From a virus (Duplodnaviria; Caudoviricetes), in IMG/VR virus record IMGVR_UViG_3300014158_000359, positions 1 to 26,014 of that record: 26,014 nt of DNA. The stretch is one strand, 5' to 3'. This document shows, piece after piece, positions 1,569-24,133 of this stretch. Below the pieces are notes generated by a model. It searched no databases. It was not told where the DNA came from and saw only the letters and a list, made by a program, of their open reading frames with translations. The position numbers and the translations under genes were made by a program. How positions within the stretch are numbered: position 1 is the stretch's first letter; every line of letters starts with the position of its first letter.

Positions 1569-3422
1569 TCACGTCACCGAAAAGGCCGTGGGATACACGG
1601 TGGGCATGCTGCCATTTGTGCCTTCCACCCAAGCATACCATGTTCCGGCAACCGATGGCGTGTTGACGTACGCCCCCCACAGATTTGTGTTGACATAAGA
1701 GCCGAGGGTCCAACTTGTTGGAGGCACGGTCGAAGATGTAGAGAAGCCAAACTGCACAGGCGCACTGCTCGGTGAGACCTGTGCATTGATGCCAATGGCA
1801 CCATTGCCGTGCAGGTAGCTCCCCGAGGGGGTAACGTTCCAGGTGATCGAGGTTACTGAAACGCCGGCCGCCGTGGTGCTCGCCGTTTCCACGTTAGACG
1901 CCGGGCCCGGGCCTGCAGCATTGACTGCAACGACCTCGAAATCGTAACTGGTATCGGATGATAGCCCAGTTACAGCGAAAGATGTCGACGTCAGGCCGGA
2001 TGCGCCGGTTAACCAGGATACTGTCCCTGAGACGCGATACTGGACCGTATAGCTGCTGGCCGTCCCCCCTGATCCCGGCGACGACCACGCCAGCGACATA
2101 CCACTACTGGTAGCGTTGTTAGTCGTGAGGCCGGTCACCATCCCGGGTGGATTGAGGCCTGCGGATGTCGACGCAGTGACGATTGCCGAAGGAATACCTA
2201 CTCCGGCATTGTTTGCGGCTGATACGACAAAGTCATAACTGCTTGCCGAGAGCAGACCGGTGACGGTGCACTCAAGTGCGGTCACGGATGGTGCAGTCGA
2301 CCATCCTGCTGTTCCACTAACCCTATACTGGATCGTATAGCTTGTCGGTGACGGCGATAGCGTAGCCCAAGTCAATGTGATGGTGTCAAAGCTTTCTGAG
2401 CTTACGGCTAAGTCACTGACCTGTCCCGGAACACCGAACGACGACGCGGATACGCTCAGCCAAGCAAAGACGAGAGTTCCACCTGAGTATGTCACACATG
2501 TAACGGTAGCAGCCTGGCCTGGAGCGAGAATGGAAGTACCCGATGAGGTGGTAACGCTACCACCCAATGTGATGTTGCCAGCGCTGACGTTGAGCAGATC
2601 ACAGGTGAAGCCATTTCCCATACTAGTCGGTGCTGAGGTGACGGTAACAGGCTGACTGCATACCAGCATCCGGCCATTGTGAACAGCCGCACTTAAAGTC
2701 GTGTCCGTTGTAAGCTCGAGCGTAGGCGGCTGATAGCATGGCAACTGCGAACTGAGCCAGACCCACACGGCAGCCAGGGTCTGGCGCAGCATCACGTTCC
2801 CGCCCTGCGCCACGAAAAAAATGTCGGTACCCGAAGCTGCGGCTGCAGCCTGCGCTTGGTCGATCGTTTGTCCGTCGATGAGATTAGCGTAGCTAATCGT
2901 GTGATCCAATCCAGCCTGACTTATCGCAACCAGATCGCCCGCCGAAATTGTCGTCACTGTTGGAAGGTCCGTGATGCTATATCCCGATGTGCCGCCCGAC
3001 GTGCCGCCTTCGAGTATCGCAGAGATAGTGCCATATTGATCGATCGCAATATTCGATCCAGAGGAAAACAAACCACGTAAAAGCGACAGTTGCAACAGTT
3101 TAGGATTGCCTTCGCTGCTCAGCACCGCTTCGTCGCTGAGCGTGAGGGTGCCCTGTACCGGGAAGCTCGCATGATCGGCTCCGGTGGCGACCAAGGTGTC
3201 AGTATTTAGGAGCAGACCAACTCCGACCCCAACTGGGTCTGGTCCCCCAGGCCCCAAACTCGTGCGTCCAAGGAGGGTTCCGGTCGCCGCGAGAATGGCC
3301 GGCTGAATGCCGGCCAGCAGTGTGCCGACGCTCACTGAGCAAGCTGACCCACCTTGGCTGATCGGAACCTGGTCCGCAGCGGTCACCTGCGAGACGGCTG
3401 GAAGCTGGGAAATTGTTGGCAT
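1569..3422 (-). CDS. Fibronectin type III domain-containing virion fibre/adhesin (617 aa)
   Basis: Two FN3 repeats (PGQVSDL..ITLTW..YTIQYR..TGLLSASSYDFVVSAAN and PPGMVTGL..SLAW..YTVQYR..TGLSSDTSYDFEVVAVN). The N-terminus is paralogous to the upstream 919-aa protein. GGAG RBS at 3428-3431. Confidence 0.8.
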   Translation of the reverse strand: MPTISQLPAVSQVTAADQVPISQGGSACSVSVGTLLAGIQPAILAATGTLLGRTSLGPGGPDPVGVGVGLLLNTDTLVATGADHASFPVQGTLTLSDEAVLSSEGNPKLLQLSLLRGLFSSGSNIAIDQYGTISAILEGGTSGGTSGYSITDLPTVTTISAGDLVAISQAGLDHTISYANLIDGQTIDQAQAAAAASGTDIFFVAQGGNVMLRQTLAAVWVWLSSQLPCYQPPTLELTTDTTLSAAVHNGRMLVCSQPVTVTSAPTSMGNGFTCDLLNVSAGNITLGGSVTTSSGTSILAPGQAATVTCVTYSGGTLVFAWLSVSASSFGVPGQVSDLAVSSESFDTITLTWATLSPSPTSYTIQYRVSGTAGWSTAPSVTALECTVTGLLSASSYDFVVSAANNAGVGIPSAIVTASTSAGLNPPGMVTGLTTNNATSSGMSLAWSSPGSGGTASSYTVQYRVSGTVSWLTGASGLTSTSFAVTGLSSDTSYDFEVVAVNAAGPGPASNVETASTTAAGVSVTSITWNVTPSGSYLHGNGAIGINAQVSPSSAPVQFGFSTSSTVPPTSWTLGSYVNTNLWGAYVNTPSVAGTWYAWVEGTNGSMPTVYPTAFSVT

Positions 3423-3464
3423 AGGCGCTCCGAATGGATGACCGTTTTTCTCGGTTTGCTCGCG

Positions 3465-6224
3465 TCAGGCCAGGACTTGAGATCCAGCGCACACTGAAAT
3501 CCAGTGCACGCCATCGCTGAAAACCTCAACACCGGACCCGGCGCCGGCAGCCTCAGTAGGCTTGCGCCCATTTGAGGCGAACGCCTTTGCACCGGCGATC
3601 GCAGTAGCGGGCAAGCCCGCAACGGTATATGATGGCAGCACAGGCGGTCCGCCGAACCGCGGATTGACCCAATTCGTCCGGAATACCTCGTGCCAGGACG
3701 AGCTACCGTCCGAGATAATGTGATAGCGGTCGTTTTGGTGGAGCGTCACCGGGCCATTGTCGATGGCATCGGTGCCGTTCGGAGTGATCGACACTGTGGG
3801 CGTGCTGACGACCGAAAATGTGAATCCTGTTCCTGCTGCGACCGTGGCCGCTGCTGGAAGCGTGATCGTATAGGTGCTTATGCCGGCTAGAAAGACAATG
3901 TTCCCGGCGACGTAGTTAGGTAGAGTTGTGTTGGCGGTGCAGACAGTCTGGAATCCTACGGTGATTCCTTTTCCGACCACATAGGACAGCGCGCCCTGAT
4001 ACCATCGGAGGACGCTTGTTGCACTATCGTACGCCAGGCGATACGTGACGGTTGGTTCAAAAGCAATTTGGTGGCCCGCGGCCAAGCGTATAGCGGCGGC
4101 ACCGGTCATCTGCGTAGCGTTCGATGTGTCTAAGACGGATGTCGAGAAGGGAATGCCGACTCCAAACACGGTGTATGCGTGTCCCGTGTGGCCCGCTGCA
4201 AGATATACGCCTAAGACGGTCGAGATCTCCATAGGGGCGCCTGAGAGATTGTTCTGACCCACTACCAGAGATTGTATTTGCCGATTGTGGCCATCGTCGG
4301 GACCATTCCCAAACCAATCCATCTCTGCGGCTATTCCAGCGTTCGTAACGCTCGAGAGTTGAGCCGTTGTGTCGCGATACTCAAAACACGCTGCCCAAAG
4401 TTGCGGCTGCGGGAGTGCCGTTCCAGCAGAGTTCGTTCCCACAGACTGGCGGATCGTCTGCACATAACGAGCAACGTGTTGTGCTGGTGCGCTTGCGGAC
4501 CCGGTTTGGATGCCGCACCAAAGCATACGGTCGATGCCACCCCATATGTAGTTGTTGGGGCTGTTATAAATAATTGTATCCGTGCGCGCATTGGCGGATA
4601 CTACTCCGGTCGTCGGTCCTCCCGTATGATTGACTATATATGCGGAGCGCGACACCGCAAAGTCGGTGGGCTGCGACGCGCCCTGAGACACCTCAACACT
4701 GATATTGCTGTTTCCGACAACTACGCCAGGCAAGACCATTTCGGCCGGCCCTGCGCCACCAGGGATTGCGTCCGCCAGTGACGTTCCGTCTGGTAGAGTG
4801 GTGCCATCGACGATCCACTTCACCCATTTCGTGAGGGAAATACCCCAGGTTGTGGGGTTCCGCAGACTCGTCACGCCATTCGGCACGTAAATGACTGAAC
4901 CAGCCGGAGCGGCCTGGTAAGCTGCGATGAATGCCGCAGTATCGTCAGTAGTTCCATTGAGTTGCGCATTGTACGGGAGGGATTTGATGTTTATGACGCC
5001 GATCATGCTTCCGGGGCTCGCGTCAACGTACGACTTAGTAGCAGCGCTCAATGGAGTTGTCGGTGCATTTGCCAGCGTCAGAGAGCCGGTTAACGTTCCA
5101 CCACTGAGCGGTAGAGCGGTTGCAATCTGCCCATCTACGTACTGCTTGGGAGCGGCCTGCATTGCAGCGGTAGGGATGTCAGCAAGCGTGATCGGCCCGG
5201 TCACTACGCCACCAGAAAGGGGTAGGCCTGTCGCGACCTGACTATCTACATAATGTTTTGTTGCTGCCTGCAACGACGAAGTCGGATCTGCTGCCAGAGA
5301 CAGCACCCCCGTTAATGAACCACCAGCAATCGGCAGCGCCGTCGCGACCTGTGCATCCGTGTACCCCTTGGTCGCCGCCTGTAGGGCAGAAACCGGGTTC
5401 GATGCCAAAATCAGGGCTCCGGTCAGAGTGTCTCCAGATCGAAATACGCGCGTATCGACGTACTCCTTGGTCGCTGCCTGCAGCGCCGCGGTAGGGTCGG
5501 TAGCCAAGGTCAGTGCCCCCGAGAGTACGCCGCCCGCCTTTGGAAGCAAGGTTGCGGTCTGGGTATCAACATAGTTCTTGGTGGCTGCTTGAGCAGCGAC
5601 AGTCGGATCGCCTGCCAGCGTCAACGGCCCGGAAAGGGTCCCGCCTGCCTTCGACAACGTAGTTGCTACTTGGCCGTCCACATAGGTCTTGGGGGCCGCC
5701 TGCAGGGGTGTCGTTGGAACAGCGGCAAGTGTTAAAGGCCCAGTCATAGACCCGCCAGTAAGCGGCAAGGTCCCTGCGGCAAAGTCAGCGAGCCTGGTGC
5801 TGGTCGTGGAACCTGTCGCAGTCAGGAGCATCTGGGATGCGTCTATATTGGAAATTTCCGGTAAGCCACTCAGAAATTGGCTATAAGGTACCGCAGTGTT
5901 GGTGCCTCCCTGACTGAGCGGTACCAAGTCACCTGGACCAGGTACCGTTCCGGTTGGCAACGCGCTGACCAGGTAGGGTGTCGCCGAGGCCGATAAAGTG
6001 CCGCTCGCCAGAGTAAGATTTGCCCCTACTGCCAGCGATTCAGGAGCCCCGGTACCTGCGCTACTGCGCCCCAGTAGAATTCCACTTTGCAGTGCCAACT
6101 GGGGCTGAACCCCGGCCAGGATTTGGGCACGCGTCATCTTTAGCGCTGTGCCTGCCTGACTGACGATATGTTCGTCGGTATCTGCTGCCGCAGTTGCCGG
6201 GGCGAGTTGGTCTATCGTCGGCAT
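3465..6224 (-). CDS. Repeat-rich fibre/tailspike-like protein (919 aa)
   Basis: Seven ~37-aa fibre repeats (..GG.LTG.LTLA.DP...QAATK.YVD), followed by NIK..YNAQLNGTTDDTAAFIAA..GSVIYVPNG, a motif like the start of pectate_lyase_3/tailspike beta-helices. GGAG RBS at 6236-6239. Confidence 0.78.
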   Translation of the reverse strand: MPTIDQLAPATAAADTDEHIVSQAGTALKMTRAQILAGVQPQLALQSGILLGRSSAGTGAPESLAVGANLTLASGTLSASATPYLVSALPTGTVPGPGDLVPLSQGGTNTAVPYSQFLSGLPEISNIDASQMLLTATGSTTSTRLADFAAGTLPLTGGSMTGPLTLAAVPTTPLQAAPKTYVDGQVATTLSKAGGTLSGPLTLAGDPTVAAQAATKNYVDTQTATLLPKAGGVLSGALTLATDPTAALQAATKEYVDTRVFRSGDTLTGALILASNPVSALQAATKGYTDAQVATALPIAGGSLTGVLSLAADPTSSLQAATKHYVDSQVATGLPLSGGVVTGPITLADIPTAAMQAAPKQYVDGQIATALPLSGGTLTGSLTLANAPTTPLSAATKSYVDASPGSMIGVINIKSLPYNAQLNGTTDDTAAFIAAYQAAPAGSVIYVPNGVTSLRNPTTWGISLTKWVKWIVDGTTLPDGTSLADAIPGGAGPAEMVLPGVVVGNSNISVEVSQGASQPTDFAVSRSAYIVNHTGGPTTGVVSANARTDTIIYNSPNNYIWGGIDRMLWCGIQTGSASAPAQHVARYVQTIRQSVGTNSAGTALPQPQLWAACFEYRDTTAQLSSVTNAGIAAEMDWFGNGPDDGHNRQIQSLVVGQNNLSGAPMEISTVLGVYLAAGHTGHAYTVFGVGIPFSTSVLDTSNATQMTGAAAIRLAAGHQIAFEPTVTYRLAYDSATSVLRWYQGALSYVVGKGITVGFQTVCTANTTLPNYVAGNIVFLAGISTYTITLPAAATVAAGTGFTFSVVSTPTVSITPNGTDAIDNGPVTLHQNDRYHIISDGSSSWHEVFRTNWVNPRFGGPPVLPSYTVAGLPATAIAGAKAFASNGRKPTEAAGAGSGVEVFSDGVHWISVCAGSQVLA
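5019..5768 (-). repeat. Seven degenerate tandem ~111-bp (37-aa) coding repeats
   Basis: Visible in the translation: AAPKTYVD, AATKNYVD, AATKEYVD, AATKGYTD, AATKHYVD, AAPKQYVD, AATKSYVD. Confidence 0.9.
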
Positions 6225-6330: not shown

Positions 6331-6810
6331 TCAAGTCAGTACTGGGTTGCCATTTTGGTCCGTCAAGACCACACCGGCGGTGATATCAATGGCGTTAGGC
6401 GGAATCGGTGGTACCGACAGTAAAAGAACCGGCAGCAATATACTGCGCTGCAGCGCCCGTCCATTGATGGTAGATATTATCACGGTAATCGTATAGACGG
6501 TCCCAGCTTGCCCTCCGGACAGCCACAGCACGGCCGAAGGGCCGTCTGCCTGGACTTCGTTTAGTGTCAGATCCCCAGGGTTGTCAGGAGTTATAAAGAC
6601 ATCAAGAGTTGCAATTGAATCCCCCTCATTTCCTATCAATGCCGGAGATATATTGAGTTGATAATCGAGGACATCATTGGGGTCCTTGGTCGGCCAGTTC
6701 AGTGGAGGCGGGGCAACCGCGGTGGACCCACGCGGCACGGGGATAAAGGCATCCAGGAGAACGGTGCGAGCACTGCTGGGCTTCGATACGTGGATAGCTG
6801 GAGTGGCCAT
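6331..6810 (-). CDS. Phage fibre adaptor-like protein (159 aa)
   Basis: KDPNDVLDYQLN..DSI..VLWLSGGQAGTVYTIT..T.NGR..QRSI resembles small phage fibre/tail adaptor proteins; it lies between fibre genes. Confidence 0.65.
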   Translation of the reverse strand: MATPAIHVSKPSSARTVLLDAFIPVPRGSTAVAPPPLNWPTKDPNDVLDYQLNISPALIGNEGDSIATLDVFITPDNPGDLTLNEVQADGPSAVLWLSGGQAGTVYTITVIISTINGRALQRSILLPVLLLSVPPIPPNAIDITAGVVLTDQNGNPVLT

Positions 6811-7219: not shown

Positions 7220-8485
7220 TTACCACCTCACGACTACTAACCCGAGCGCCCCGGCCGCGCCGTTGTACGGCGTGTTGCCATTGGAGCCTGTGCCAGCCCC
7301 AGCGGCGCCTCCCCCGGGAAACACTCCGGCAACACCGCTTGTGCCGCTGTTCTGGCTTCCGCCCATTGGGGCGGCACCTCCCATTCCCCCCTGGCTCAGC
7401 ACGGCCGCCTGGCCGGCAGATCCAACAAGATTCACGTCCCCACCAACGCCAGTTCCTGCGGGTGTAGCGCCGTTTTGTGGGCTTGTAACGCTAGCAAGAC
7501 AATTGAGACTGCCACCAGTCGCGCTAAGATAGGCACCGAAGCTGGATGTGCCACCGGAGGTCGCGCTACCGCCGCCAATTGTTCCGTAGTTGCCGCCGCT
7601 GCCGACGACAACAACGATAGACTGGCCCGGCGTTAGACCGGTTATCCGTTTTCGTGCATAGCCACCGCCCGAACCACCGCCTGAACTGCTACCGCTGGGT
7701 GTTCCGGAAACCGACGCGTAGCTACCCGCGCCCCCCCCCCAGACTTCGACTTCCACCTGTGTCACACCCGCGGGAACAACGAAATTCCCCGATGCAGTAA
7801 AGCTCTGGATTCCCGAACCGAAGCCAGGATGTAGTGACGGCAATTTCCACGACAGAAAGGGTGCCGTTGGTAGTGTCAAAATGTTCGCTGCGGTGATTGA
7901 TGCCTGGCCGTAGGAGACAGTGATGACGTAGAGTCCCGTCCAACCATCGTCAACCGGCGGGGTAGACTGTGTTCCGGAGATAGCGGGCGCACCAGACTTC
8001 ATCTCCAGTTCAACACATTGCGTACGCAGGGTGTTCTGAGCAGTTGCAGAATTCGCTGGGCCACTGTAAGGTTGCGATGGCTGGGCTGCATTATAGTAAG
8101 GCAAAACGATTGGATTGACATCGCTCTCCTGAAATGCAGCCTGTATAAGGTAATTCGCCGATTGGCCTGATGTAGTCGGGGCCGTGATTGTGAAGCTTGT
8201 CGGGGTGATATTGATACCAATCTTAAGTAGCGTATCCGTTGTGTCTGCGGGCAAGGATCCGTATGGTAGCATATCGACTACGGAAAGCTGAGAAATTGTG
8301 CCTGGCCCGACCATTATCGTCATGGAAGGAGGAGACGTCGGAGTGCAAGCTAGCCCATCCACGACGGGGCCAGTCCCCAGTACCGCCTGCGCCAGGTAGC
8401 CCACCGCAATCATCGCGTTACGATTGATAGAGAGCAAATCTGTATCGAGCGGGATGCTTCCTGGATAAACTAGATTTCGGTCCAT
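7220..8485 (-). CDS. Tail fibre protein with C-terminal glycine-rich domain (421 aa)
   Basis: Follows the baseplate wedge genes. The C-terminus has FTASGNFVVPAGVTQVEVEVWGGG..GGGSGGGY..G.VVVRW, a Gly-rich fibre domain. Confidence 0.8.
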   Translation of the reverse strand: MDRNLVYPGSIPLDTDLLSINRNAMIAVGYLAQAVLGTGPVVDGLACTPTSPPSMTIMVGPGTISQLSVVDMLPYGSLPADTTDTLLKIGINITPTSFTITAPTTSGQSANYLIQAAFQESDVNPIVLPYYNAAQPSQPYSGPANSATAQNTLRTQCVELEMKSGAPAISGTQSTPPVDDGWTGLYVITVSYGQASITAANILTLPTAPFLSWKLPSLHPGFGSGIQSFTASGNFVVPAGVTQVEVEVWGGGAGSYASVSGTPSGSSSGGGSGGGYARKRITGLTPGQSIVVVVGSGGNYGTIGGGSATSGGTSSFGAYLSATGGSLNCLASVTSPQNGATPAGTGVGGDVNLVGSAGQAAVLSQGGMGGAAPMGGSQNSGTSGVAGVFPGGGAAGAGTGSNGNTPYNGAAGALGLVVVRW

Positions 8486-8513: not shown

Positions 8514-9188
8514 CTAGCTGCTTATTCGGGTCCAGGCTATGACCCCAACCGGCAGCACCTCGGTAATTGCAGTGCAAATATCGGCATCCGTGACTTGCCC
8601 CTGCATCATGGCAAGGTTTGCGTATTCCAGTGAGCCCTGACCGTATCCTCCGCCATCACATCCCCACCCCGACACGGATCCGATGCCTACACCCGCTGGT
8701 CGATAGGCCGTGACGAAGAATTGAAATGGCAAGTCAAGGTTCCCCCAGCCGCCTGCCGCTCCGTAAGCAATCCCGCTACCCTTTCCGCTGATACTGCCAT
8801 ATCCGCCAGTGTTCGAAGTGTTCGCAGGCTCAAACACATTCGGTGGTCGTCCTGTCTGATCTACAAGTGCCGAGATGACAGCTTGCCGTGTCCCTCGCTC
8901 GCGGATGAGTTCCAACTGGAGCCGCAGTCGGTACGCGTCGTCATTCTCGCCAACACGTCGGCCAAGATTGGCTCCGAAATAGTCCACTGCTATCAAGTCT
9001 AGCCAGGTGCCATAGGCTGTCGAAATGCGGGCCTGCGATATGACGTACTGCAAAAGTTCGTATACCCAGGCCCAAGCCCATGCGACACCATTCAGCAGTG
9101 TATCGAGAACCGGCGTGTCGTCCGGAAACCATTGTAGTGGCAGGACCTGTTTTAGACGGGACAGGACATCCTGCTGGTCGCCTATCAT
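8514..9188 (-). CDS. Baseplate wedge protein (P2 gpI / Mu gp48-like, 224 aa)
   Basis: TAYGTWLDLIAVDYFG..RRVGENDDAYRLRL..RGT motif; immediately after baseplate J. Confidence 0.75.
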   Translation of the reverse strand: MIGDQQDVLSRLKQVLPLQWFPDDTPVLDTLLNGVAWAWAWVYELLQYVISQARISTAYGTWLDLIAVDYFGANLGRRVGENDDAYRLRLQLELIRERGTRQAVISALVDQTGRPPNVFEPANTSNTGGYGSISGKGSGIAYGAAGGWGNLDLPFQFFVTAYRPAGVGIGSVSGWGCDGGGYGQGSLEYANLAMMQGQVTDADICTAITEVLPVGVIAWTRISS

Positions 9189-11218: not shown

Positions 11219-11221
11219 CAA

Positions 11222-12488: not shown

Positions 12489-12489
12489 G

Positions 12490-13230: not shown

Positions 13231-13337
13231 TCGGCTCCTCGAACGACGGACTTGAGCACGGCTGGCGAGGTAGAAGCACACTCACGGTGATACCCCCTAT
13301 CGTGCCCGGGATATGTTCTGAGATGACGTGGCGAAAA

Positions 13338-15308: not shown

Positions 15309-16871
15309 TTAGGTCGCCTGCCCGCTGGGGAGGGTCTGGACGGACACCTGGACTGTCTGACCTCCTTCCACGTTGACGATGAATTTTTCGTTGATCGATT
15401 GATATTGCACCTGCGCGTCCGACTGCACATAACCGAGGCCAGTCCTACTCGCTGGATTGTTTGACGTGTCGCAAATAACGCTGAATGGCAGACTTCCGTC
15501 GGTACTGCCAAGCAGACCCTGGCTGAGCATGTTTTGCAGGAACGAGAGCTGGCAGGAGCGAATACTGAGGAACAGGTTGGCGTTGATGACCTGCCCTACA
15601 TACTGCCCCATGCCCGCGGCGAGGGTAGCGGCGATGTAGTTGGTGAGGCGCGTATAGTTGTCACCATCGATAGCCTGATTGGACGATGAGTTGAAGCCCC
15701 CGCGGACCCCCCAGTAGCTTCCGCCAGGCTGCGGGTTGGATATCACGTCGATCCCCGCACCGAACAGCACCGCGAGATCCGCCGCGGAGTAGGATGTGCT
15801 TTGACCAGATCCCGGAGTCCCCGACATCTGGCTGCCGATGACACAGTAAATCTGTTTGTTCAAACTCGATTGCTCCGGTGACAGGTTCGCGAGCCGGCCG
15901 GCAACAAACCCTTGCGGTGAAACCAACCGGATCGTGCTGTTCACCTGGTCGGACCACCATAGCCAGTCGCCGAACATCAGCTTTGCAGAATAGCTGTCGA
16001 GCCCGGCCTGCTGCATAACTGTGACCGCATTCTGGATTGTGTCGCCGGCCGGGCCCGTCAGGATCATATAGACGCCTTGCTGGAGGCCGAACGCCGCCTG
16101 AGTTGTCCACTGAGTTGGATCGTCCGAGTCGGCCAGCACGGCGATACCGCAGCCCTGGCCTGTCAAGGCGTACATGCCGGTGCGGGGAGGAATGTCCACG
16201 CCGACCAACTGCATGGATGACACCCCAGATGCCCCATCGGACCCCGGCGTACTGGCACCAAGTGTCGTAGCGAAGGCTACCGGAGGCACCGTGGCACCAC
16301 CAGCACTGGCGATCACAAGCTGCGACGGTCCACGCTGCGGACCCTGACCCTGATTGACTGCTGCCGCGAGGGCGAGCCAGAACGGCGCCCCGGTACCGCC
16401 GATATTGTCATAGACCTCAGGCTGCAATCCAGGCAACGCTGCTATCAATCGCCAGGTGTTTGCTCCGGAACCAGGTTGCAGCGTGAGGCTAACCTGATTG
16501 CCGAGCGAGCCCGTGTAGAGTGCTGTAAAGGTAGCCGTCGTCCCAGGAACAACCACCTGCGCAGCCGTGTCGGTTCCATCGCTAACACGAACACAACGGA
16601 AATTCTGAGCGCCCTGTTGGACCGCTGTGGCGATTTGGGTTCCCATGTCATATTTTCGAGCGATGATCGGACCGAAACTCTGTGCATAATCCGCCATGGT
16701 TGCGACGATGACGGGTTGTGCGACCGGTCCCCAGGACGCGGTGCCGACGACGCCAACCACATTGGTCGGAACACCGTTCAGTACCAGGTTCTGGGGTGGC
16801 ACTATCTGGACGTAGAGGTCTGGCACCACCAGCGCCGTCGTATTGATGCTGCCCTGCTGAACGATCGGCAT
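15309..16871 (-). CDS. Contractile tail sheath protein (520 aa)
   Basis: PDLYVQIV, GVVGTASWGPV..PV, ALYTGSLGN and C-terminal R.TNYI..CDTSNNP motifs of the phage sheath family. Confidence 0.9.
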   Translation of the reverse strand: MPIVQQGSINTTALVVPDLYVQIVPPQNLVLNGVPTNVVGVVGTASWGPVAQPVIVATMADYAQSFGPIIARKYDMGTQIATAVQQGAQNFRCVRVSDGTDTAAQVVVPGTTATFTALYTGSLGNQVSLTLQPGSGANTWRLIAALPGLQPEVYDNIGGTGAPFWLALAAAVNQGQGPQRGPSQLVIASAGGATVPPVAFATTLGASTPGSDGASGVSSMQLVGVDIPPRTGMYALTGQGCGIAVLADSDDPTQWTTQAAFGLQQGVYMILTGPAGDTIQNAVTVMQQAGLDSYSAKLMFGDWLWWSDQVNSTIRLVSPQGFVAGRLANLSPEQSSLNKQIYCVIGSQMSGTPGSGQSTSYSAADLAVLFGAGIDVISNPQPGGSYWGVRGGFNSSSNQAIDGDNYTRLTNYIAATLAAGMGQYVGQVINANLFLSIRSCQLSFLQNMLSQGLLGSTDGSLPFSVICDTSNNPASRTGLGYVQSDAQVQYQSINEKFIVNVEGGQTVQVSVQTLPSGQAT

Positions 16872-16876: not shown

Positions 16877-17026
16877 TTAAGCCCCTCCCGGCATCCGCGC
16901 GGCTACCCGCACAACATAATGGGCACGTTCACCACTGATGATGCTGGCGATACGCGCGGAATCCGTGATCACGTCACCGCGTGAGAAGCCGTCGAAAGGT
17001 CTCACAACGACCAAATGAATTTCCAT
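16877..17026 (-). CDS. Small conserved-position protein before the sheath (49 aa; not in ORF track)
   Basis: GGAG RBS at 17032-17035, ATG 17026, MEIHLVVVRPFDGFSRGDVITDSARIASIISGERAHYVVRVAARMPGGA, TAA 16877. It fills the gap between genes. Confidence 0.75.
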   Translation of the reverse strand: MEIHLVVVRPFDGFSRGDVITDSARIASIISGERAHYVVRVAARMPGGA

Positions 17027-17039: not shown

Positions 17040-17849
17040 TTAGGCTGTAAAGGTGCCGGCGTTTAGGACAAGTTCACCGAACAGCATGGCAGGCTGCCGG
17101 GCAGTGATCGTTGTGGGATATTCTACGTCGTAGAGCAGGTCGCGGCGATAAAGCAGCGCGTCCTGGGATTGATCGAATACAAGTGTACCGCGATATTGTA
17201 GGCGGCCCTGGGAGCTATCGGCCAGGTTGATGAACTGAAAACCAACGAGTAGCAGATCGATTGCCGAGGCCGAGGCGTCGCGAGTGGCGGGTGTGGGGCA
17301 CCAACACGTGATGCGGAATCCCCGTTCCTGACGCCGTACTTCCTGCATCACTGAAGCGTCGGCGACCACTCGGGCCAACACACTGCCGGCACCGGGAATT
17401 GTTAGTGTTGCGCCCGAGAGGTTGACAATCCAGTCAGTGCGAACAGCAGTTGCTAAGTTCGCGGCTACGGTCGCCGGCGTGTCGCCAGCTTGTGAGGCGT
17501 ACACATAACTGCTGTCATTGACCAGCATTCCGGCGAGCTGTCCCGGACCTGCGGTGCCCCCGATGGTGACCGAGACGCCAGAAACCGATGCGGTGAGTGT
17601 TGCCTGTGCCGGGAAACCTTGCCATTGTTGCGAATATCGGGTTGTATTGCGGCCTGGCTCGCCCTGTGGGAAGACTGTGACGTTAATGACGCCGGCCGCG
17701 AGGTCTGCGTTCAGCGCGGCTGAATTAGGCCAGCCGCGGTATATCCGACAGTCCGGCCCAGGGAGACTCGGCGAGCTCGACCCGTTTGGATATAGCGCAT
17801 TGGCAGCCAGTGCAACCAACGCATTCTCTACATCCGACTGGTCAGCCAT
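17040..17849 (-). CDS. Putative tail terminator/neck protein (269 aa)
   Basis: TGATG-coupled to the upstream gene and positioned before the sheath; function inferred from gene order. Confidence 0.6.
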   Translation of the reverse strand: MADQSDVENALVALAANALYPNGSSSPSLPGPDCRIYRGWPNSAALNADLAAGVINVTVFPQGEPGRNTTRYSQQWQGFPAQATLTASVSGVSVTIGGTAGPGQLAGMLVNDSSYVYASQAGDTPATVAANLATAVRTDWIVNLSGATLTIPGAGSVLARVVADASVMQEVRRQERGFRITCWCPTPATRDASASAIDLLLVGFQFINLADSSQGRLQYRGTLVFDQSQDALLYRRDLLYDVEYPTTITARQPAMLFGELVLNAGTFTA

Positions 17850-18493
17850 CAGGTCGTAGCCTGTCTTACAGCCAATCGCCAGCCGAGATCAGTTAGCTCA
17901 GTGGTTGCAACGACACCACCGCGTCCGAGATCATCAGACATCAAATCGGCAGTCTGCAGAACGACGCCGGGGCAAGCGGGCAGCAAGACGGTCCAGTAGG
18001 AGACCGACGTATCACTGGGCAGATTGGCGAGAGGGCGACCTTCTCTAGATGCGACCAGCACACTCGCTGGCCAGTTGGTCATGAGTGGAGTGACATTCGC
18101 TGCCGTAACGCCTCCATACATATTCACCCCAGTGCTTGTTTGCGCTGCGGGGCGAGTAAACGAAATCACCCGGTTGGTCTGTACGCAAAGAACGGGTAGA
18201 ATCTTGTGTTGTGCAGCGATAAACCAGGTGGCGTCGTGCTGCACCAAGTAGTCGCCGGGCCGCGTATATGCGGCGTCGAATATGCCGCACCATAGCGCGT
18301 TGCCATACCCATTCGGCCGGGTAAATTTTCCGTCGAGACCGCTGAATGCGGCATGAAGGCGAAGAAATCTGTTCCGCGTCGCAAGCGGACTTTCCGTTCC
18401 GCGCGGGCGGTATGCGCTAGTAGTCACGCCGGTCGCACGAGCGGCAACGTTTAGGCCCCAGCGGATACGATCTTCGAGCCGAGCTGAATCCAT
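17849..18493 (-). CDS. Putative head-closure/neck protein (214 aa)
   Basis: ATG 18493 lies 1 nt after the upstream stop (ORF track start 18610 overlaps the upstream gene); function inferred from gene order. Confidence 0.6.
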   Translation of the reverse strand: MDSARLEDRIRWGLNVAARATGVTTSAYRPRGTESPLATRNRFLRLHAAFSGLDGKFTRPNGYGNALWCGIFDAAYTRPGDYLVQHDATWFIAAQHKILPVLCVQTNRVISFTRPAAQTSTGVNMYGGVTAANVTPLMTNWPASVLVASREGRPLANLPSDTSVSYWTVLLPACPGVVLQTADLMSDDLGRGGVVATTELTDLGWRLAVRQATT

Positions 18494-18494
18494 T

Positions 18495-18872
18495 TTAGAC
18501 CACCAGTGTAATTCCGCAGTCGGCCAGCGCAGGCCCGGGAGGGACGCCGAGGAACCCACAAAAACGCCGGCACCAGTCGTCAAACAGCCGGATCCGATCG
18601 CGAGGCTCATCGCGGTTTCTCATCCATACCGCGGCAGAATCCGTGTCGAGGTTGTCACCGGAGCGTGGAATCGCGATCTCCAGCACGGTCAATGTTCCCA
18701 GATACCGGAGGACGACGGCCGTTTCCGCGTCAGAAAGGTTGTTAAGGCGGAACTCCAACAGGCCGTAAACCTGATAGAACCGCCAATTCTCAAACCCTGC
18801 TGGTGCAGCGCCGTACGCCGGATAGCCACAAAAGCGGCGGGCGTCGGTCTTCTGCGCGTCCGTCATCGTCAT
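18495..18872 (-). CDS. Putative head-tail connector/adaptor (~125 aa)
   Basis: Small helical protein (MTDAQKTDARRFCGYP..) after the capsid region; TAATG coupling at 18872. Confidence 0.65.
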   Translation of the reverse strand: MTMTDAQKTDARRFCGYPAYGAAPAGFENWRFYQVYGLLEFRLNNLSDAETAVVLRYLGTLTVLEIAIPRSGDNLDTDSAAVWMRNRDEPRDRIRLFDDWCRRFCGFLGVPPGPALADCGITLVV

Positions 18873-19179
18873 TAGCGGTACCACCCTTCGCCACGTATGA
18901 AGAAAACACTGTCATAGCTACTGGTGAGCATATCGGCAACAAAAGTAATCGGTGAGATGAACGACAGTACGGCTTGCGAAGTAGATAGTACCGGCGTGTC
19001 GGGCGATGGGGCGTTGACTGATGTGTTCCTACCGAACCCAACAGACACGGACACGCTGGTAGAACCGGTTACGGCAATCGACTTCCCATGGCAATCAAGC
19101 TGCATTCTTACAGATCTCGCGAGAGCATGCAGCGGGGCAATGCCGCTGGATGGAAATGGCCGATCGTTTGGATCGACAT
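18872..19179 (-). pseudogene. Frameshifted small virion (possible head decoration) gene
   Basis: ATG 19179 (MSIQTIGHFHPA..) stops at 19108. A second frame, open across the region, ends at TAA 18872, coupled to the next ATG. One indel near 19150 would give a ~102-aa beta-rich protein. Confidence 0.55.
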
Positions 19180-19199: not shown

Positions 19200-20522
19200 T
19201 CAGCCGATATGTTCTACCATCACGGCACGTTTGAAAGCCGCGTTCGTGGCGGTGGGAACAGTGGTGGGATTCGTCGTTGTGTCGGATGGGGCGCAGAATC
19301 CACCCATCCAATACCAGGATTGAGCGATGATCTGTTGCAGCCGGTCGATTGGCTCCCGCGTAACCATAGCTACCCCGTCCACCACCACAACGATCGAATC
19401 CTTGGGGGCGACGTCCTCCGCGGCCATGCCGGCGAAGTCGCCTTCGACCAATGCGCCCTGCCCACAAATGATCGGCCGCCGTACCATAAGCCCCGCTAGA
19501 GTCGGGTGCGGCTGTACGAACGCCTCGGTAGTAGGCATGAATCTCAGACCCAGGAAATCATTTGTCATGCCCTGGCGAAACACTTGGTTGGCTGACGTTG
19601 CCCCCTGAAAAAGTTGCTTGAAATCCGGATCGGCGAATAGCTGCCGTGCGGAGACCGGATCCAAGTAGCAGTTGTACGAGCCATCAATTTCCGGGACCGC
19701 GTTCATGCGCAGCTTCGAGACGGCGTCCAGCAGGCAAGACATCGCTAGGGTATCGGTGGCGACAATTTGCGACGTGTTGCTGCGCTGCGAAGGGCGGACA
19801 ATTACACATGCGTTCGCTGCAGTCACGGTGTTGCCGGCAGTACCGTCGCTGACGGATACGTTGGCGGAGAAGGTCAATACGCCGGACACGCCATTCGGTG
19901 CGGTCGAAACGTTCGTTGCGTCTGCCGCGGCGCCAATCAGCGTATAGGAATCTGCGCCAACCGTGACTGTCAAAGTGTTCGAGCTGGTGACTGACTGCTG
20001 CACCCCGTTAACGAAGGCGGTCTGGAAACCACGAATATCGTCGACGGGCACCGATGGACCGGCGCCGCCAAGCGTGCTGCGTACACGCGTGTTCCCGCCG
20101 AAATACGCGTTGAACAGGGCATTTCGGGCCAATTCGTCCAGGCTGCGCGCGGCCTGTTCGCCATTGACGTAGGCGTTCTGCAGGAATTGCGAGGCAATAC
20201 CGACCCGGGCGGTCACCATGTTGAGGTCGGTTGTTGCTGCGTAGTGGTTGATTGTGATGGTATACTGCTCGACCCCCCATGTAGTCGGCGTCAGACCATT
20301 GTCAAAATTAGTGTTGGTGGCGGGCGCCAGCGGCGTTGTTACTGTCGGCTTCAGGCCAACCCGCGTCTTGGTGAGCGTCTCACCAATTCCTACGGCGAAG
20401 GCTTCCCGATCTGCGCACGCCCGATAGCCGAGACGCGAGCGGAGGGCCTGCTCAAATTCGCGCTCCAGAAAGCCCTGCTGAATGATCGGTTGCAGAGCCG
20501 GCGGAAAATTCTGAATCCCCAT
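19200..20522 (-). CDS. Major capsid protein (440 aa; DUF4043/N4-gp56-like by recollection)
   Basis: Follows portal and scaffold. HK97-fold-like features include GETLTKTR, EQAARSLDELA, Y.CYLDP..QLF.DP and GLRF; AAGGGA RBS. Confidence 0.85.
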   Translation of the reverse strand: MGIQNFPPALQPIIQQGFLEREFEQALRSRLGYRACADREAFAVGIGETLTKTRVGLKPTVTTPLAPATNTNFDNGLTPTTWGVEQYTITINHYAATTDLNMVTARVGIASQFLQNAYVNGEQAARSLDELARNALFNAYFGGNTRVRSTLGGAGPSVPVDDIRGFQTAFVNGVQQSVTSSNTLTVTVGADSYTLIGAAADATNVSTAPNGVSGVLTFSANVSVSDGTAGNTVTAANACVIVRPSQRSNTSQIVATDTLAMSCLLDAVSKLRMNAVPEIDGSYNCYLDPVSARQLFADPDFKQLFQGATSANQVFRQGMTNDFLGLRFMPTTEAFVQPHPTLAGLMVRRPIICGQGALVEGDFAGMAAEDVAPKDSIVVVVDGVAMVTREPIDRLQQIIAQSWYWMGGFCAPSDTTTNPTTVPTATNAAFKRAVMVEHIG

Positions 20523-20564: not shown

Positions 20565-20975
20565 TTAATAGCGCTGCTTCAGTAGCGCTGCACGGGCCGC
20601 TGCGTACTCCGCGCTTGTCATTTCAGTCGCATGCTTTTGGCGCGGTGGCTGTGCCAGAGGCGCACTCAATGGGCTGGACGACGACGGCATTCCAAATAGC
20701 CAAGGTTTGGCTTTTTTGAAGCGCCCCATCAATTCCGAGGCGTCGTCAATTTCGCCATTCTCATTAAGCTTTATCCCAGACAAGTCCAGCAGCTTCAAGC
20801 CATCTAGATCTATCATTCCTGCGCGTACGGCCTCAGCCTTCATTTCGGCGCGGACTAGGCGCGTATCTGACTGCTGCTGAAAGTCATTCAACTTCTTTTC
20901 AAGAAGCTCCGCGCGGGCACGTAGATCGTCGACGGGGTTATCAGCGGGTTCAACCTGAGGTACGATTTCGGTCAT
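20565..20975 (-). CDS. Capsid scaffolding protein (136 aa)
   Basis: Coiled-coil N-half, KKAKPWLF and C-terminal MTSAEYAAAR; between portal and capsid; TGATG coupling. Confidence 0.78.
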   Translation of the reverse strand: MTEIVPQVEPADNPVDDLRARAELLEKKLNDFQQQSDTRLVRAEMKAEAVRAGMIDLDGLKLLDLSGIKLNENGEIDDASELMGRFKKAKPWLFGMPSSSSPLSAPLAQPPRQKHATEMTSAEYAAARAALLKQRY

Positions 20976-22390
20976 CAGTTTATCCTGGTGCTGTGGTCCG
21001 CTGAAATACCGGTCAGCTCGCCAGGCACATCCTCGATGTCGAATGTGTCAGCGATGGCCTTGACCGCAGTCTCTCGGCTCATCAGGCCGGCGGTCACAAG
21101 GGTTGTCAGGGTCTGTGCATCTTTCTGGCGGTCATCAGCTGTCGGGGGATACCAGCGCGGCCACTTGATGGACAGGCGGGCGGATACATCGAGTGCTGGT
21201 ATTTCCTTTTCCATCGCTCGCAGCGGGTAGACATGTGACGCGCGCACAACCATCCGTGCAAGGCTAAGTAGCGCAGTCTCCCCGTAACTGACGCGCAGGT
21301 TGTCTGCGAGCCATAACAAACCCTGGTTCATCAGTTCTAGGGCCCGTCCGGATTGCGCCGCCGTCAGACGGTCGGCATTCGCTCGATTTCCGTGTACGCT
21401 TTCCAATGCAAGCTCTCGCAATGTTCGTACGTACTCCATGACCGCCGCGGACGCCGTACCGCCTATTTCCAGTAACCTGGCATCGCCCCTTTCGCTGACT
21501 ACAAGTGCATTGCCGGCGCCCTTAACTATCTGGGCATCGCTGGTAGCCGGCTCTTTGATCAATAGCGTAGGGTCACTGCTGTATTTCAGTCCGCGACCCG
21601 CTTGACTGAGTTGGTAGTCGATCTCAATTTGCGTCTCAATGGCCGATCTGAAAGTGCAGGCGCCATCGTTGGGATCGTCGGTTGCTGATCTGCCCGGTAA
21701 GTTCCTGACCCACACTATCGGAACGAAACCCAAGCCGTGTTTGACGCTTCGTTCTAGATCTATGTCCGGTACGCCTGTATGGCCGACAGCGACCGGAGTG
21801 AACCATGTTTCACATTCAATATCCCATTGGCGCTCAAACCAGTAGTCTATTCCGAGGTCGGCAATCTGATAGCCATTTTCGGCAAGTCTCGTGCCGGAAA
21901 CCTTATATCGCTCGGTGATTTTGCACAGGGAGTCCGGTGCTTCGGGATCCCAGAGTGGCGCAAGATAGGTGGTATCTAGTACCTGGAAGAATACGCGCCC
22001 ACGAAGGATTCGCATGAGAATTGCGACGGAGCCGACCGAGCCGAAAATCGCCGCCTCTGTCATAACTTGATTGAGCCGCGCCTCCTTGGCAATGTCCGAG
22101 AGAACCGATTGGACAGTCGTGTCTGCGCAGTCGATTGTTGGAAAATGGCCCTCGCTAAAGAGGAGAGAGACGCTGTCCTCGACGACAACTCGGGACAGGC
22201 CGTAACGCACGCTCGGTCGACGGCTGCGTAGGGGGATATAGTCACCACCGAGGCTGCGCTCCTCGTGAAATTGATACGGCAGCACGTCGTAAAGTGTTCC
22301 ATCAAGAACCCTGCGTAGGATGTCGAGCATCCGCGTCCGTGGCGAATAATCGGGGTCCCGAGGGATCAAATTGCAAATCGTGTCAAACAT
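20975..22390 (-). CDS. Portal protein (SPP1 gp6-like, 471 aa)
   Basis: HGLGFVPIVWVRN, SGRALEL and GLMSRETAV motifs; directly after the terminase. Confidence 0.88.
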   Translation of the reverse strand: MFDTICNLIPRDPDYSPRTRMLDILRRVLDGTLYDVLPYQFHEERSLGGDYIPLRSRRPSVRYGLSRVVVEDSVSLLFSEGHFPTIDCADTTVQSVLSDIAKEARLNQVMTEAAIFGSVGSVAILMRILRGRVFFQVLDTTYLAPLWDPEAPDSLCKITERYKVSGTRLAENGYQIADLGIDYWFERQWDIECETWFTPVAVGHTGVPDIDLERSVKHGLGFVPIVWVRNLPGRSATDDPNDGACTFRSAIETQIEIDYQLSQAGRGLKYSSDPTLLIKEPATSDAQIVKGAGNALVVSERGDARLLEIGGTASAAVMEYVRTLRELALESVHGNRANADRLTAAQSGRALELMNQGLLWLADNLRVSYGETALLSLARMVVRASHVYPLRAMEKEIPALDVSARLSIKWPRWYPPTADDRQKDAQTLTTLVTAGLMSRETAVKAIADTFDIEDVPGELTGISADHSTRIN

Positions 22391-22437: not shown

Positions 22438-23865
22438 TTAGCGAGCCATGTGGGGAACCGTAAGCGTTCGCGATGGGGGGACGATGTCCAGCAGCATGGT
22501 GAAGGCGCGCGACAACGCGTCGACTTGGTCGTCTTTGCGGCCAAATGGGAAGTCGCGCAGCTCTTCAATGAATGCGTGGTTCCAGTTGGCCCGGAAAAGC
22601 GAAACGTTACCGCCTTCGATCTGAGAGGCGACCGGCGCCGCCCGTGTCGCTTTAGCGCCGGTTTCTCGCGACGGAACCACGTGATAGCCGGCGAGTTGGC
22701 TGGTAAGATAGGTGGTCTGGCTCTTGCCCGCTTGGCCAGGATCCACGGGAAGGCCGATGGTCACGCCGCGACCGTCGGCCCGAGCGGCCGTGACGATACT
22801 GTCTTCCACCTCACGCGGACTTCCACGCAGCCGCATAACATCCAGCACCGTGTATCGTCCCGAGTCGTGCCGAGTTAGTTTCACCCCTACAGTCCAATCG
22901 GGATCGTTACGGCCTGTCGTTGCGGTCGCCGCGAGATCCCATGCCCGCACGACCGGTGCAGGGGGACCGGGCGGTAGCCAGTCGATGAATTCCAGGCATC
23001 CGACTTTGAATAGTGTCCCCGCCTCCGGTCGTGGCGATTGCTGATATTGTGCCAACCATGCGCGTTGGCCGACAGAAGTGCGGCGACGCAACAGCCCTGG
23101 GATGTCCTCCCACTCCGGCCAAATGGGTTCGCCAAGCGGGCGGTTAAGCTGATCCCCCTCCTCCGCTAACGCTGGCAACGTCAAGCAACGCCACTCTTCC
23201 GCGTCGTGTTCGAGTAGACGGCCACAGAGGTCATCCTGATGCCAACGCGTCATGATCAGGATGATCCGTGCCTTTGGCTTCAGCCGCGGAATGAGATCAG
23301 ATCGATACCAGTCCCAAAGTCGATCCCGATGGATAAGGCTGTCCGCCTCGGCTTGTGATTTGACGGGATCGTCGATTATCGCCAGGTCGGCCCGGCGTCC
23401 AATCAGTGCACCGCGAATGCCGATCGCGTAATATTCTCCACCCAGCGATGTAGACCAGTGCGAGTTGGCGCGATCGCGGACCGAAATGTTATAACCCAAC
23501 GAGGGGGCCTCCTCGTCTATGATTGACCGGGCCCGGCGTCCGAAATATGTTGCGAGGCCCGCTGTGTGCGAAGCCGCTATGATTGAGTCTCGCGGATGCC
23601 GTGTGAACCACCAGGCGGGGAACAGGATCGACGTGTAGGTCGATTTGGCCGATCCCGGCGGCATTTGGACCATTAGCCGGTCGGTATCACCGCGACTCAG
23701 CGCCTCCAACTCGTTCATCAGCAGGCGATGGTGCTTTGCAGGTATCTGGCCGTAGCCGCAGATGGTTGTCTCAACCCATTCTAGCAGGTTGCAGTTTGTT
23801 AGGTACCTGGGGGCTACCACCTCGCCACCGTCAAACGGATATTTGGGTCTTTGGCGTTGCGCCAA
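22438..23865 (-). CDS. terL: Terminase large subunit (up to 475 aa)
   Basis: Walker A MPPGSAKST, Walker B IIDDP, coupling motif MTRWH.DDL, nuclease motifs RAWDLA and DDQVDA. Exact start uncertain. Confidence 0.95.
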   Translation of the reverse strand: MAQRQRPKYPFDGGEVVAPRYLTNCNLLEWVETTICGYGQIPAKHHRLLMNELEALSRGDTDRLMVQMPPGSAKSTYTSILFPAWWFTRHPRDSIIAASHTAGLATYFGRRARSIIDEEAPSLGYNISVRDRANSHWSTSLGGEYYAIGIRGALIGRRADLAIIDDPVKSQAEADSLIHRDRLWDWYRSDLIPRLKPKARIILIMTRWHQDDLCGRLLEHDAEEWRCLTLPALAEEGDQLNRPLGEPIWPEWEDIPGLLRRRTSVGQRAWLAQYQQSPRPEAGTLFKVGCLEFIDWLPPGPPAPVVRAWDLAATATTGRNDPDWTVGVKLTRHDSGRYTVLDVMRLRGSPREVEDSIVTAARADGRGVTIGLPVDPGQAGKSQTTYLTSQLAGYHVVPSRETGAKATRAAPVASQIEGGNVSLFRANWNHAFIEELRDFPFGRKDDQVDALSRAFTMLLDIVPPSRTLTVPHMAR

Positions 23866-24103
23866 ATACGATTTTCTTCGCGTCGGACCGCGTCAGTTCC
23901 ATCACTCATGATTGCGCAGAAATAGCGGTGAGGCGAGATGGGAAGGATGAGTCGGCCGGCAGCCGAATGCCGGTGGACTGACCCCGGGCCCGTTATTTTC
24001 GTGCGATCGGGAGTGCTAACCGGCGGCGCTGGCAACGCGTAGCGATAGCGGACTGGAGAGGGGCGGACTGGCGCTGCGGCTCGTCCTCGCCATCATACGC
24101 AAA

Positions 24104-24133
24104 CTTATACAGGAGATTGGGGTGTTTGGTCAA
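24104..24133 (-). promoter_or_regulatory. Putative sigma70-type promoter of the virion operon
   Basis: TTGACC (24133-24128), 18-nt spacer, TATAAG (24109-24104), preceded by an A6 tract. Confidence 0.55.

Follow-up and report, generated by a model that had tools for sequence, protein, structure and literature searches.

Gene transfer agents (GTAs) and related viriforms such as RcGTA (Rhodogtaviriformidae), BaGTA and BhGTA are encoded by structure-only, phage-derived clusters that are inherited vertically, co-evolve with their hosts and are not self-propagating. As a functional class, they are defined by particles that take up random host DNA with at most a part of their own genes and deliver it to recipient cells. 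Characterised GTA lineages of independent origin are few, and all those treated in the available part of PMC9662315 have non-contractile tails. The PBSX particles of Bacillus possess a head and a contractile tail, package random 13-kb fragments of host DNA and kill; according to the accessible part of PMC8347963, regions of the PBSX type encode XRE regulators, a sigma-like factor, the small terminase TerS, a prohead protease and lysis genes. The DNA considered here, hereafter the window, is the whole 26,014-base IMG/VR record IMGVR_UViG_3300014158_000359, which was treated as a virus record. Its minus strand carries, at 1569–24146, a cluster of about 26 co-oriented genes that runs from the gene of the large terminase TerL to those of the tail fibres behind one promoter (22.6 kb, promoter included). 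With a probability of about 0.7, the head, terminase and contractile-tail genes of this cluster form an immobile set that has been passed on vertically, is under purifying selection and likely builds GTA-like particles packaging bacterial DNA. A more far-reaching reading, for which the odds fall somewhat below even, is tentatively proposed: the cluster would be the first contractile-tailed GTA, an anciently domesticated, myovirus-derived element without TerS and with one promoter, which would have arisen independently of the RcGTA lineage and would have been passed on vertically across much of the Acetobacteraceae, a bacterial family that abounds in peatlands.

No description of this cluster family was found in the full-text literature on gene transfer agents in Acetobacteraceae, in Rhodospirillales or with contractile tails. 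A study published in 2025 reports that peat-moss metagenomes share phage-like contigs that align to Acetobacteraceae genomes, with gpVWJ baseplate domains and with metabolic genes on their flanks; in the sections of that paper that were available, GTAs and tailocins are mentioned only as possibilities (PMC12142844).

Protein families were assigned with Pfam and PHROGs to 29 open reading frames (ORFs) of the window. The original prediction, made from the letters of the window, had described some 25 co-oriented and largely coupled genes for packaging, capsid, neck, sheath, tube, baseplate and fibres, with an SPP1-like portal, a scaffold, a Mu/P2-like contractile tail and no protease; both the coordinates on the minus strand and the assigned roles were borne out (Table 1). 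Neighbouring genes of the cluster mostly overlap or lie 0–50 nt apart, and all of the ~26 ORFs are intact. None of the 29 scanned ORFs belongs to a prohead protease, TerS, integrase, repressor, replication or lysis family. ARAGORN found no tRNA gene in the window, which therefore does not contain any attachment (att) site located in a tRNA gene, and no Rfam family reached its gathering score.

RcGTA-like elements are recognised by an HK97-type capsid that is accompanied by a prohead protease and by homology to the RcGTA head-tail cluster. The cluster of the window shares with GTAs the general features listed above: it encodes a tailed virion-like particle, no replication, integration or excision gene was found in it and its inheritance appears vertical. 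Unlike the described GTAs, it encodes a sheath, a tube, a P2/Mu-type baseplate, an SPP1-type portal and a scaffold, and neither a protease nor a TerS was found; these traits place it outside the Rhodogtaviriformidae. It also differs from R-type tailocins and extracellular contractile injection systems by the presence of capsid, portal, scaffold and TerL genes, all of which are strongly constrained.

The capsid protein matches 206 of 401 genomes drawn evenly from the Acetobacteraceae, the family of G001 (the metagenome-assembled genome, or MAG, that matches the window), at E ≤ 1e-20, and 183 of these 206 genomes have a single match. About 148 of the family genomes match at 70–90% identity; a second mode near 50% identity probably corresponds to prophages related to the Komagataeibacter phage phiKX1. 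Stop codons occur in only 3 of the 150 capsid matches listed. In a sample covering the whole class, the capsid matches 3 of 401 genomes at E ≤ 1e-60, one of them being G001 itself. Two carrier contigs (L027 and L055) were found in MAGs titled Bifidobacterium and Burkholderiaceae; since L027 has the receiver-like neighbour typical of Acetobacteraceae, mis-binning is a more likely explanation than transfer. DNA nearly identical to positions 4200–24199 of the window (share of words 0.39–1.00) was also detected in 19 DNA runs from peat, wetland or soil.

The best 80 of 176 confirmed genome loci and the best 80 of 594 viral-catalogue loci found with TerL gave 159 related loci, in which tblastn searches with the window proteins revealed the same gene order. 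The genes located upstream of TerL were clustered for the 60 genome loci with at least 6 kb of upstream DNA, and 59 representatives of the commonest clusters, singletons being left out, were annotated. At least three chromosomal contexts were distinguished among these 60 loci. In context A (21 loci, including those of Rhodopila globiformis DSM 161 and of a complete Rhodopila chromosome), tgt lies ~175 bp upstream of TerL and is followed by queF, queG, rsmI, an LppC-like gene, trpS, murJ, gpsA, rlmJ and tsaD. In context B (20 loci), which is that of the window, a receiver-like gene precedes either DUF6065-TPR-CCG-Tim44 or dnaQ-coaE-aroE. Context C, represented by three Acidisoma-type loci, comprises a sulfotransferase gene, a DUF6362 gene and an HTH_3 gene. 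Among all 159 loci, the receiver-like gene is found upstream of TerL in 41, a 149-aa ORF in 31 and the DUF6065 gene in 20, and several loci have dnaQ-coaE-aroE within 3 kb. The conserved location beside these genes that had been predicted is thus observed, and a second clade is fixed beside tgt. The 59 upstream representatives do not include any integrase, TerS or replication protein, none of these families was identified among 97 + 65 downstream proteins of relatives, and no att-like direct repeat flanks any of the four elements checked; early genes and att sites in homologues, which would have spoken for a mobile phage, were therefore looked for without being encountered in these samples.

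Element and host proteins diverge together. For the 13 context A loci that have all the genes, the p-distances of five host flank proteins and of eight element proteins are strongly correlated (r = 0.948, Mantel p 1e-4, slope 0.88, intercept 0.007), the capsid diverging more slowly than Tgt. For eight context B loci, the comparison of DnaQ and CoaE with TerL, portal and capsid gives r = 0.969. In order to remove linkage as an explanation, tgt and queF were also taken from genomes where they are unlinked to the element: the correlation of Tgt plus QueF with the element amounts to r = 0.707 over 24 genomes (p 1e-4, slope 1.04) and to r = 0.84 over the seven genomes with unlinked tgt (21 pairs). 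In trees built by an IQ-TREE quick search under LG+G4, each of the nine host clades tested also appears in the element tree, with a support of 100 for eight of them and of 66 for one. The expected congruence between element and host was thus found.

The ratios of nonsynonymous to synonymous substitution rates (dN/dS), calculated according to Nei-Gojobori between the window and six close relatives, are approximate, as dS is often near or above 1, and are well below 1 as anticipated: 0.09–0.12 for TerL, 0.03–0.08 for the portal, 0.02–0.06 for the capsid, 0.04–0.06 for the sheath, 0.04–0.07 for the tube and 0.07–0.15 for two neck proteins, i.e. 0.02–0.15 for the structural genes. Outside the cluster, the receiver-like gene gives 0.06–0.11 and the 149-aa ORF 0.27–0.45. 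These values already contradict the idea that the cluster is a decaying cryptic prophage remnant without function, as do the intact ORFs of the window, the 147 of 150 listed capsid matches that are free of stops and the retention of the promoter in 113 of 124 loci. The absence of life-cycle genes, the insertion sequence (IS) elements at one border and the IS insertions and broken ORFs of the closest genome relative (G403, whose assembly may carry sequencing indels) could be cited in favour of such decay, which is nevertheless extremely improbable. Taken together, the fixed loci, the congruence with the host and the selection support the proposed domestication; vertical inheritance at sites fixed within clades and purifying selection in the Acetobacteraceae are well supported by these comparisons of sequences.

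On the right of the promoter, the window encodes, in divergent orientation, a 149-aa ORF without any family and a 158-aa single-domain receiver-like protein, next to which lies a DUF6065 gene (2.1 kb in total). The promoter had been predicted to abut host-type genes, with ~2.1 kb upstream of terL devoid of integrase, repressor and replication genes; both statements hold (the coordinate then given, 24133, is where the -35 hexamer starts) and the second can be extended. As the record ends at the edges of the window, an absence of life-cycle genes could not be demonstrated from the window by itself; a twin contig makes this possible. This MAG contig (G001:C20; L002/L168) is 99.97% identical to the window over 13.6 kb (window 12441–26014) and extends 14.4 kb further upstream of TerL, where it encodes TPR/BTAD and CCG-domain proteins, a Tim44-like protein, SecB, a DnaQ exonuclease, CoaE, AroE, an NHL protein and a Liv-type ABC transporter. 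This extension consists of host core genes and includes no phage gene, and no integrase, excisionase, repressor, replication or TerS gene was found in the 16.5 kb upstream of the cluster (window plus twin contig).

At the left end, 65 bp past the last fibre gene, lies an IS5-family element (~534–1503; DUF4096 plus DDE_Tnp_1 transposase at 556–1392, minus strand), beside an IS66 fragment (1 to ~504) with which the record ends. Copies of these IS showing 76–100% identity are found on other contigs of the matching MAG (G001:C419, C476, C427 and C304). The early, lysis and integration genes of an ordinary temperate prophage could lie beyond these IS elements, which hide the distal flank of the window; the lysis and recombination genes of the Ralstonia phage Raharianne indeed come after its fibre genes, and the GC content of the element is below that of its host. 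Such a prophage is however very improbable. Host genes abut TerL without any TerS, none of the annotated flanks includes an integrase, and neither co-divergence with host genes nor single-copy presence throughout a family befits a mobile phage. Moreover, complete relatives end at their fibre genes. In G002, the closest well-assembled relative, the homologue of the FN3 fibre gene lies 29 bp ahead of genes for an amidohydrolase, a GH15 enzyme and an FMN dehydrogenase and of further metabolic genes, and the clusters of G404 and G405 likewise stop at the fibres, with host genes next. The cluster of the complete Rhodopila chromosome spans 21.7 kb from promoter to FN3 fibre and is followed ~630 bp further by the start of recA and then by flagellar export genes; that of R. 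globiformis spans 24.5 kb and precedes genes for a TPP enzyme, a HicA-like protein and a deaminase, and then recA, which is thus found 0.6–3.4 kb past the fibre genes in these two Rhodopila genomes. Because these relatives likewise end at the fibre genes, the cluster of the window, which extends from TerL to the FN3 fibre, has the appearance of a full-length member.

The promoter is a further trait common to all contexts. A motif of 44 nt, made up of an A-rich stretch and then CTTG(A/C)CC-N6-CCCA-N7-GTAT-N10-ATGATGG, is located upstream of TerL in 113 of 124 related loci, being counted as kept when at least 15 of 20 consensus positions agree, vs none of 248 control windows; it is found in 22 of 24 loci of context A, 40 of 42 of context B and 51 of the remaining 58. 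In the window, its TTGACC and TATAAG hexamers are close to the sigma-70 consensus, and a generic promoter scan overlooked it because the -10 hexamer ends in G. A genome-wide search in five carrier genomes located the pattern once per genome, upstream of TerL, in four of them. A regulon sharing the motif was considered and rejected, the five genomes having no second site except for one chance-like match with two mismatches. The conserved CCCCA of the spacer and the ATGATGG just downstream of the -10 hexamer suggest that a regulator might bind at the promoter. With respect to the host regulation that characterises GTAs, the cluster thus has a unique sigma-70-like promoter and no phage regulator; the receiver gene adjacent in 41 loci is tied to it by position only. 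The receiver-like protein (24745–25221, plus strand) matches Response_reg with an E-value of 5.5e-5, which is under the Pfam cut-off, and falls into Atlas clusters labelled 'response regulator'; homologues with 40–50% identity are unlinked to the element in four of five genomes whose cluster sits elsewhere. It could thus be a regulator of the cluster or simply a neighbour. In one metatranscriptome run, 15 short contigs with at least 99% identity cover 14 of 30 bins of window positions 4200–24199 and are spread between a fibre gene and TerL; they offer a weak hint that was not counted as evidence of transcription, as such libraries may hold DNA and a silent control was lacking.

Two candidates were examined in the 5' leader and rejected. 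A 31-aa upstream ORF (23814–23909, minus strand) ends in TVARW and its stop codon overlaps a possible GTG start of TerL (GTGGTAG). It was considered as a vestigial TerS, but it is kept, with the same length, only in its own subclade (the window, L084, L086 and L088), and none was detected in the remaining loci whose upstream region could be used (131 loci examined). A conserved RNA structure was discarded as well: RNAalifold did not predict any pair from 66 leaders, and the leaders folded as single sequences differ little from shuffles (mean z -0.68).

The capsid and TerL proteins were also compared with the records of free-living phages. The structural module is colinear with that of the phage Raharianne (Rahariannevirus, NC_054955), 17 of the 29 Raharianne proteins tested, from the portal to the N-terminus of the fibre, finding the window with 32–62% identity. 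Raharianne differs in its 46-kb phage genome, which encodes a replication initiator, DnaB, RecET, an endolysin and a recombinase or transposase; in addition, a 184-aa ORF overlaps the start of its TerL gene, its TerL does not match that of the window and belongs to a different lineage, its tape measure has 636 aa vs 323 aa in the cluster, and its gp42 is one gene where the cluster family has two. The Komagataeibacter phages phiKX1 and phiKX2, described as mitomycin-induced temperate myoviruses of acetic acid bacteria in the accessible part of PMC8566455, come from the same host family and share a capsid with 51% identity and a layout of head and contractile-tail genes. Unlike the cluster, phiKX1 has a 53-kb circular genome that encodes an integrase, an XRE regulator, an antirepressor, a Dam methylase, a TerS of the Terminase_2 family and a 742-aa tape measure, none of which is found in the cluster.

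The closest TerL of the phage collection (47.6% identity) is that of phiAO1 (LC644971), which was obtained from mitomycin-induced myovirus-like particles of Acetobacter orleanensis (accessible part of PMC8566455). Its record does not carry any integrase gene and mixes structural and host-type genes. It differs from the cluster by a capsid gene (annotated DUF2184) that gave no match to the window capsid in the search of the phage collection, by two small ORFs ahead of its TerL and by the host-type genes that interrupt its module. This 34.1-kb record (L174) includes genes for a sorbosone dehydrogenase, a sulfurtransferase, a peroxiredoxin, a superoxide dismutase, a catalase and MutT, and phiAO1 may be another host-fixed particle locus, in Acetobacter.

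Combining these data, the working of the cluster could be viewed as follows. Expression from the single conserved promoter would lead to the assembly of particles whose tail is predicted to be about half as long as those of phage relatives, the tape-measure ORF being half as long as theirs. As there is neither a TerS for the recognition of pac or cos sites nor any step that excises or replicates the locus, packaging by TerL would begin at any available DNA end and the heads would be filled with host DNA, which would possibly be transferred to other bacteria. The strong selection on TerL, portal, scaffold and capsid suggests that DNA-filled heads are part of the selected function.

A killing role of the PBSX type, overlooked in the original prediction, is the main rival to this GTA-like mechanism and a live one as regards function. 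The cluster would then encode a tailocin with a head, domesticated and selected for killing related strains by means of its contractile tail, the packaging of host DNA being incidental and without productive delivery. PBSX provides the precedent of headed contractile particles that both package random 13-kb host DNA and kill (accessible part of PMC8347963) and, like the cluster, is a chromosomally fixed set of head, terminase and contractile-tail genes; this likeness is one of gene content, between unrelated host phyla. Within the family, variation is greatest in the fibre genes. In G004–G006, a GH108 lysin gene and a Peptidase_S24 repressor-like gene next to the cluster recall the SOS-induced PBSX. 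Pure killing, however, does not require TerL, portal, scaffold and capsid, which are among the most constrained genes (dN/dS 0.02–0.12). Furthermore, the XRE repressor, sigma-like activator, TerS, protease and lysis cassette of PBSX-type regions, as listed in the same part of PMC8347963, were not found in the window with Pfam and PHROGs. A killer particle is thus unlikely, although far less so than a prophage or a remnant.

Several points weigh against the interpretation as a domesticated GTA-like element. The particle, the packaged DNA and gene transfer have been observed for no member of the family. Its capsid has the same length as, and 51–62% identity to, capsids of phages with genomes of 46–53 kb, so that its head may hold more than the 22.6-kb cluster; it may thus be large enough for the whole cluster, unlike that of RcGTA, BaGTA and BhGTA. 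Searches of carrier genomes for GH108, the receiver-like gene and Terminase_2 did not tie any lysis gene, TerS or regulator to the cluster. Terminase_2 of Pfam was above its cut-off in none of five carrier genomes, other TerS families not being searched. The element of the window does not encode any lysis family detectable with Pfam or PHROGs. Between the fibre genes and pyrD, G004–G006 carry genes for a GH108 lysin, a TPR protein, unknown proteins and a Peptidase_S24 repressor-like protein (L171 3426–7989, L172 3173–8260, L173 13166–17339). They include the sole lysis genes seen next to any member, and this stretch may serve the element of that clade as a module for lysis and SOS control; the G004 lysin of family GH108, used as a query, was found in only one of five other carrier genomes and not in G001, G002, G405 or G334. 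HTH_3 and DUF6362 genes are located 1.4–2.1 kb upstream of TerL in the Acidisoma-type loci. The distal border in the window is an IS nest at the end of a contig, with the sequence beyond it unseen. The composition is also not what a long residence would lead one to expect: the cluster has a GC content of 57.6% vs 64.9% for the adjacent host DNA (L168) and a GC3 of 0.62 vs 0.78, and the elements of two Rhodopila genomes have 56.3% vs 60.8% and 59.4% vs 64.8% in their flanks. With this deficit of 4.5–7 points, the element has kept a composition different from that of its host, which a very old resident might have adopted; its expression may be low, or it may be subject to a distinct mutational regime. 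Finally, the dN/dS ratios are approximate, the host tree relies on two proteins (599 columns), most genomes are MAGs and some long-read assemblies have likely indel errors.

Table 1. Promoter, leader and genes of the cluster, in the order of transcription (positions refer to the window)
Feature	Position	Strand	Evidence and remarks
Cluster promoter	24104..24146	-	A-rich stretch TAGGAAAAAAGA 24146-24135; -35 TTGACC 24133-24128; 18-nt spacer with CCCCA; -10 TATAAG 24109-24104
5' leader, ~230 nt	23866..24103	-	sequence read; conserved ATGATGG (24096) near start
TerL, large terminase, 475 aa from TTG	22438..23865	-	Terminase_6N, Terminase_6C; phrog_38 E 1.5e-97; alternative start GTG at 23820
Portal, SPP1 Gp6-like	20975..22390	-	PF05133 E 7e-12; Raharianne gp25 55% identity
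Scaffolding protein	20565..20975	-	PF06810 E 5.9e-9; phrog_194
Major capsid protein	19200..20522	-	phrog_1357 E 1.5e-32; Raharianne capsid protein 62% identity
77-aa ORF between capsid and neck genes, no assigned role	18872..19105	-	no family match; tblastn matches with 34-43% identity in 41 related loci
Conserved neck or head-completion protein, 129 aa	18495..18884	-	phrog_14539 E 2e-38; Raharianne gp31 52% identity
Conserved neck protein	17849..18610	-	phrog_14605 E 9e-52; matches Raharianne gp32; likely start ATG 18493, coupled to upstream stop, as the family match starts at residue 40
Conserved neck or tail-terminator-region protein, 269 aa	17040..17849	-	phrog_13532 E 7.7e-69; matches Raharianne gp33
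Small ORF, Raharianne gp34-like	16880..17020	-	tblastn 38% identity over 47 aa, E 2e-6
Contractile tail sheath	15309..16871	-	phrog_23 E 3.5e-46; Raharianne gp36 56% identity
Tail tube	14868..15296	-	phrog_12993 E 1.8e-38; directly after sheath gene; matches Raharianne gp37
Tail assembly chaperone-like protein (role suggested by position)	14503..14871	-	phrog_20383; matches Raharianne gp38
Tape-measure-slot ORF, 323 aa, unusually short	13338..14309	-	no Pfam or PHROGs family
Tail or baseplate protein (p263), N-terminal part of Raharianne gp42	12490..13281	-	phrog_21362 E 3e-40
Small LysM-like tail protein, gpX-like, C-terminal part of Raharianne gp42	12303..12545	-	phrog_21362, phrog_28233, phrog_975
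Tail protein, gpD-like by position	11222..12322	-	phrog_52 E 1.4e-23; matches Raharianne gp43
Baseplate spike, gpV-like	10703..11221	-	PF04717 E 2.7e-10
Baseplate wedge protein, gpW-like	10318..10695	-	phrog_120, phrog_975; matches Raharianne gp45
Baseplate J	9190..10314	-	PF04865 E 1.4e-33
Baseplate protein, gpI-like	8514..9188	-	phrog_26379 E 8e-69; phrog_6
Tail fibre, glycine-rich C-terminal domain	7220..8485	-	PF21722; phrog_863 E 2.4e-32
Small fibre-associated ORF, 88 aa	6952..7218	-	phrog_8716 E 3e-5
Fibre-tail adaptor-like protein	6331..6810	-	PF23148 Gp77, E 3.5e-23
Large tail fibre, 919 aa, collagen-like repeats	3465..6224	-	phrog_8378 E 8e-22; phrog_16641
Distal fibre, two FN3 domains; last cluster gene	1569..3422	-	PF00041 E 1.3e-22

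Some of these genes vary within the family. The tape-measure slot is occupied by an intact ORF in 60 related loci, with a length of 200–715 aa (median 316), and only its C-terminal ~35 residues are conserved. The split between the p263 and gpX-like genes was considered as a frameshift pseudogene, which was rejected, as each of them has an ORF of its own in 37 of 37 relatives. Homologues of the large and FN3 fibre genes are found within a 10-kb reach in only one of the 159 loci and show 37–82% identity in complete elements. The element of R. globiformis has only ~70 bp where the 88-aa fibre-associated ORF would sit, which is too little for it.

Some relatives carry additional genes. A protein of 844 aa that has a pectate-lyase-like domain, and could be a head-borne spike or a depolymerase, is encoded between the scaffold and capsid genes in L017 (13251–15782), and a similar spacing is seen in L008, L023, L025 and L026. 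In Acidisoma silvae (L179 10455–14470), the fibre genes are followed by a second sheath-like gene, encoding 647 aa with 57% identity to the sheath of the window, and then by the gene of a 691-aa protein; homologues of the latter with 686–717 aa follow the fibres in L170, L171, L173 and L177 and are found neither in the window nor in G002.

A head and contractile-tail cluster that is selected throughout a family would add an independent phage domestication, with a different injection machine, to the few GTA lineages that have been characterised, and one may ask how packaging of DNA is initiated when no small terminase takes part. Bacteria that dominate acidic peat soils would possibly have, in such a cluster, a large and so far unrecognised means of exchanging genes or of killing other strains. 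Viral catalogues list these clusters as viruses, the record of the window being itself an example, and seeing them as host genes would change the reading of 'core virome' signals such as those reported in the available part of PMC12142844. Cultured carriers, namely Rhodopila globiformis DSM 161 and the type strains of Acidisoma silvae and A. cellulosilyticum, make the question directly testable.

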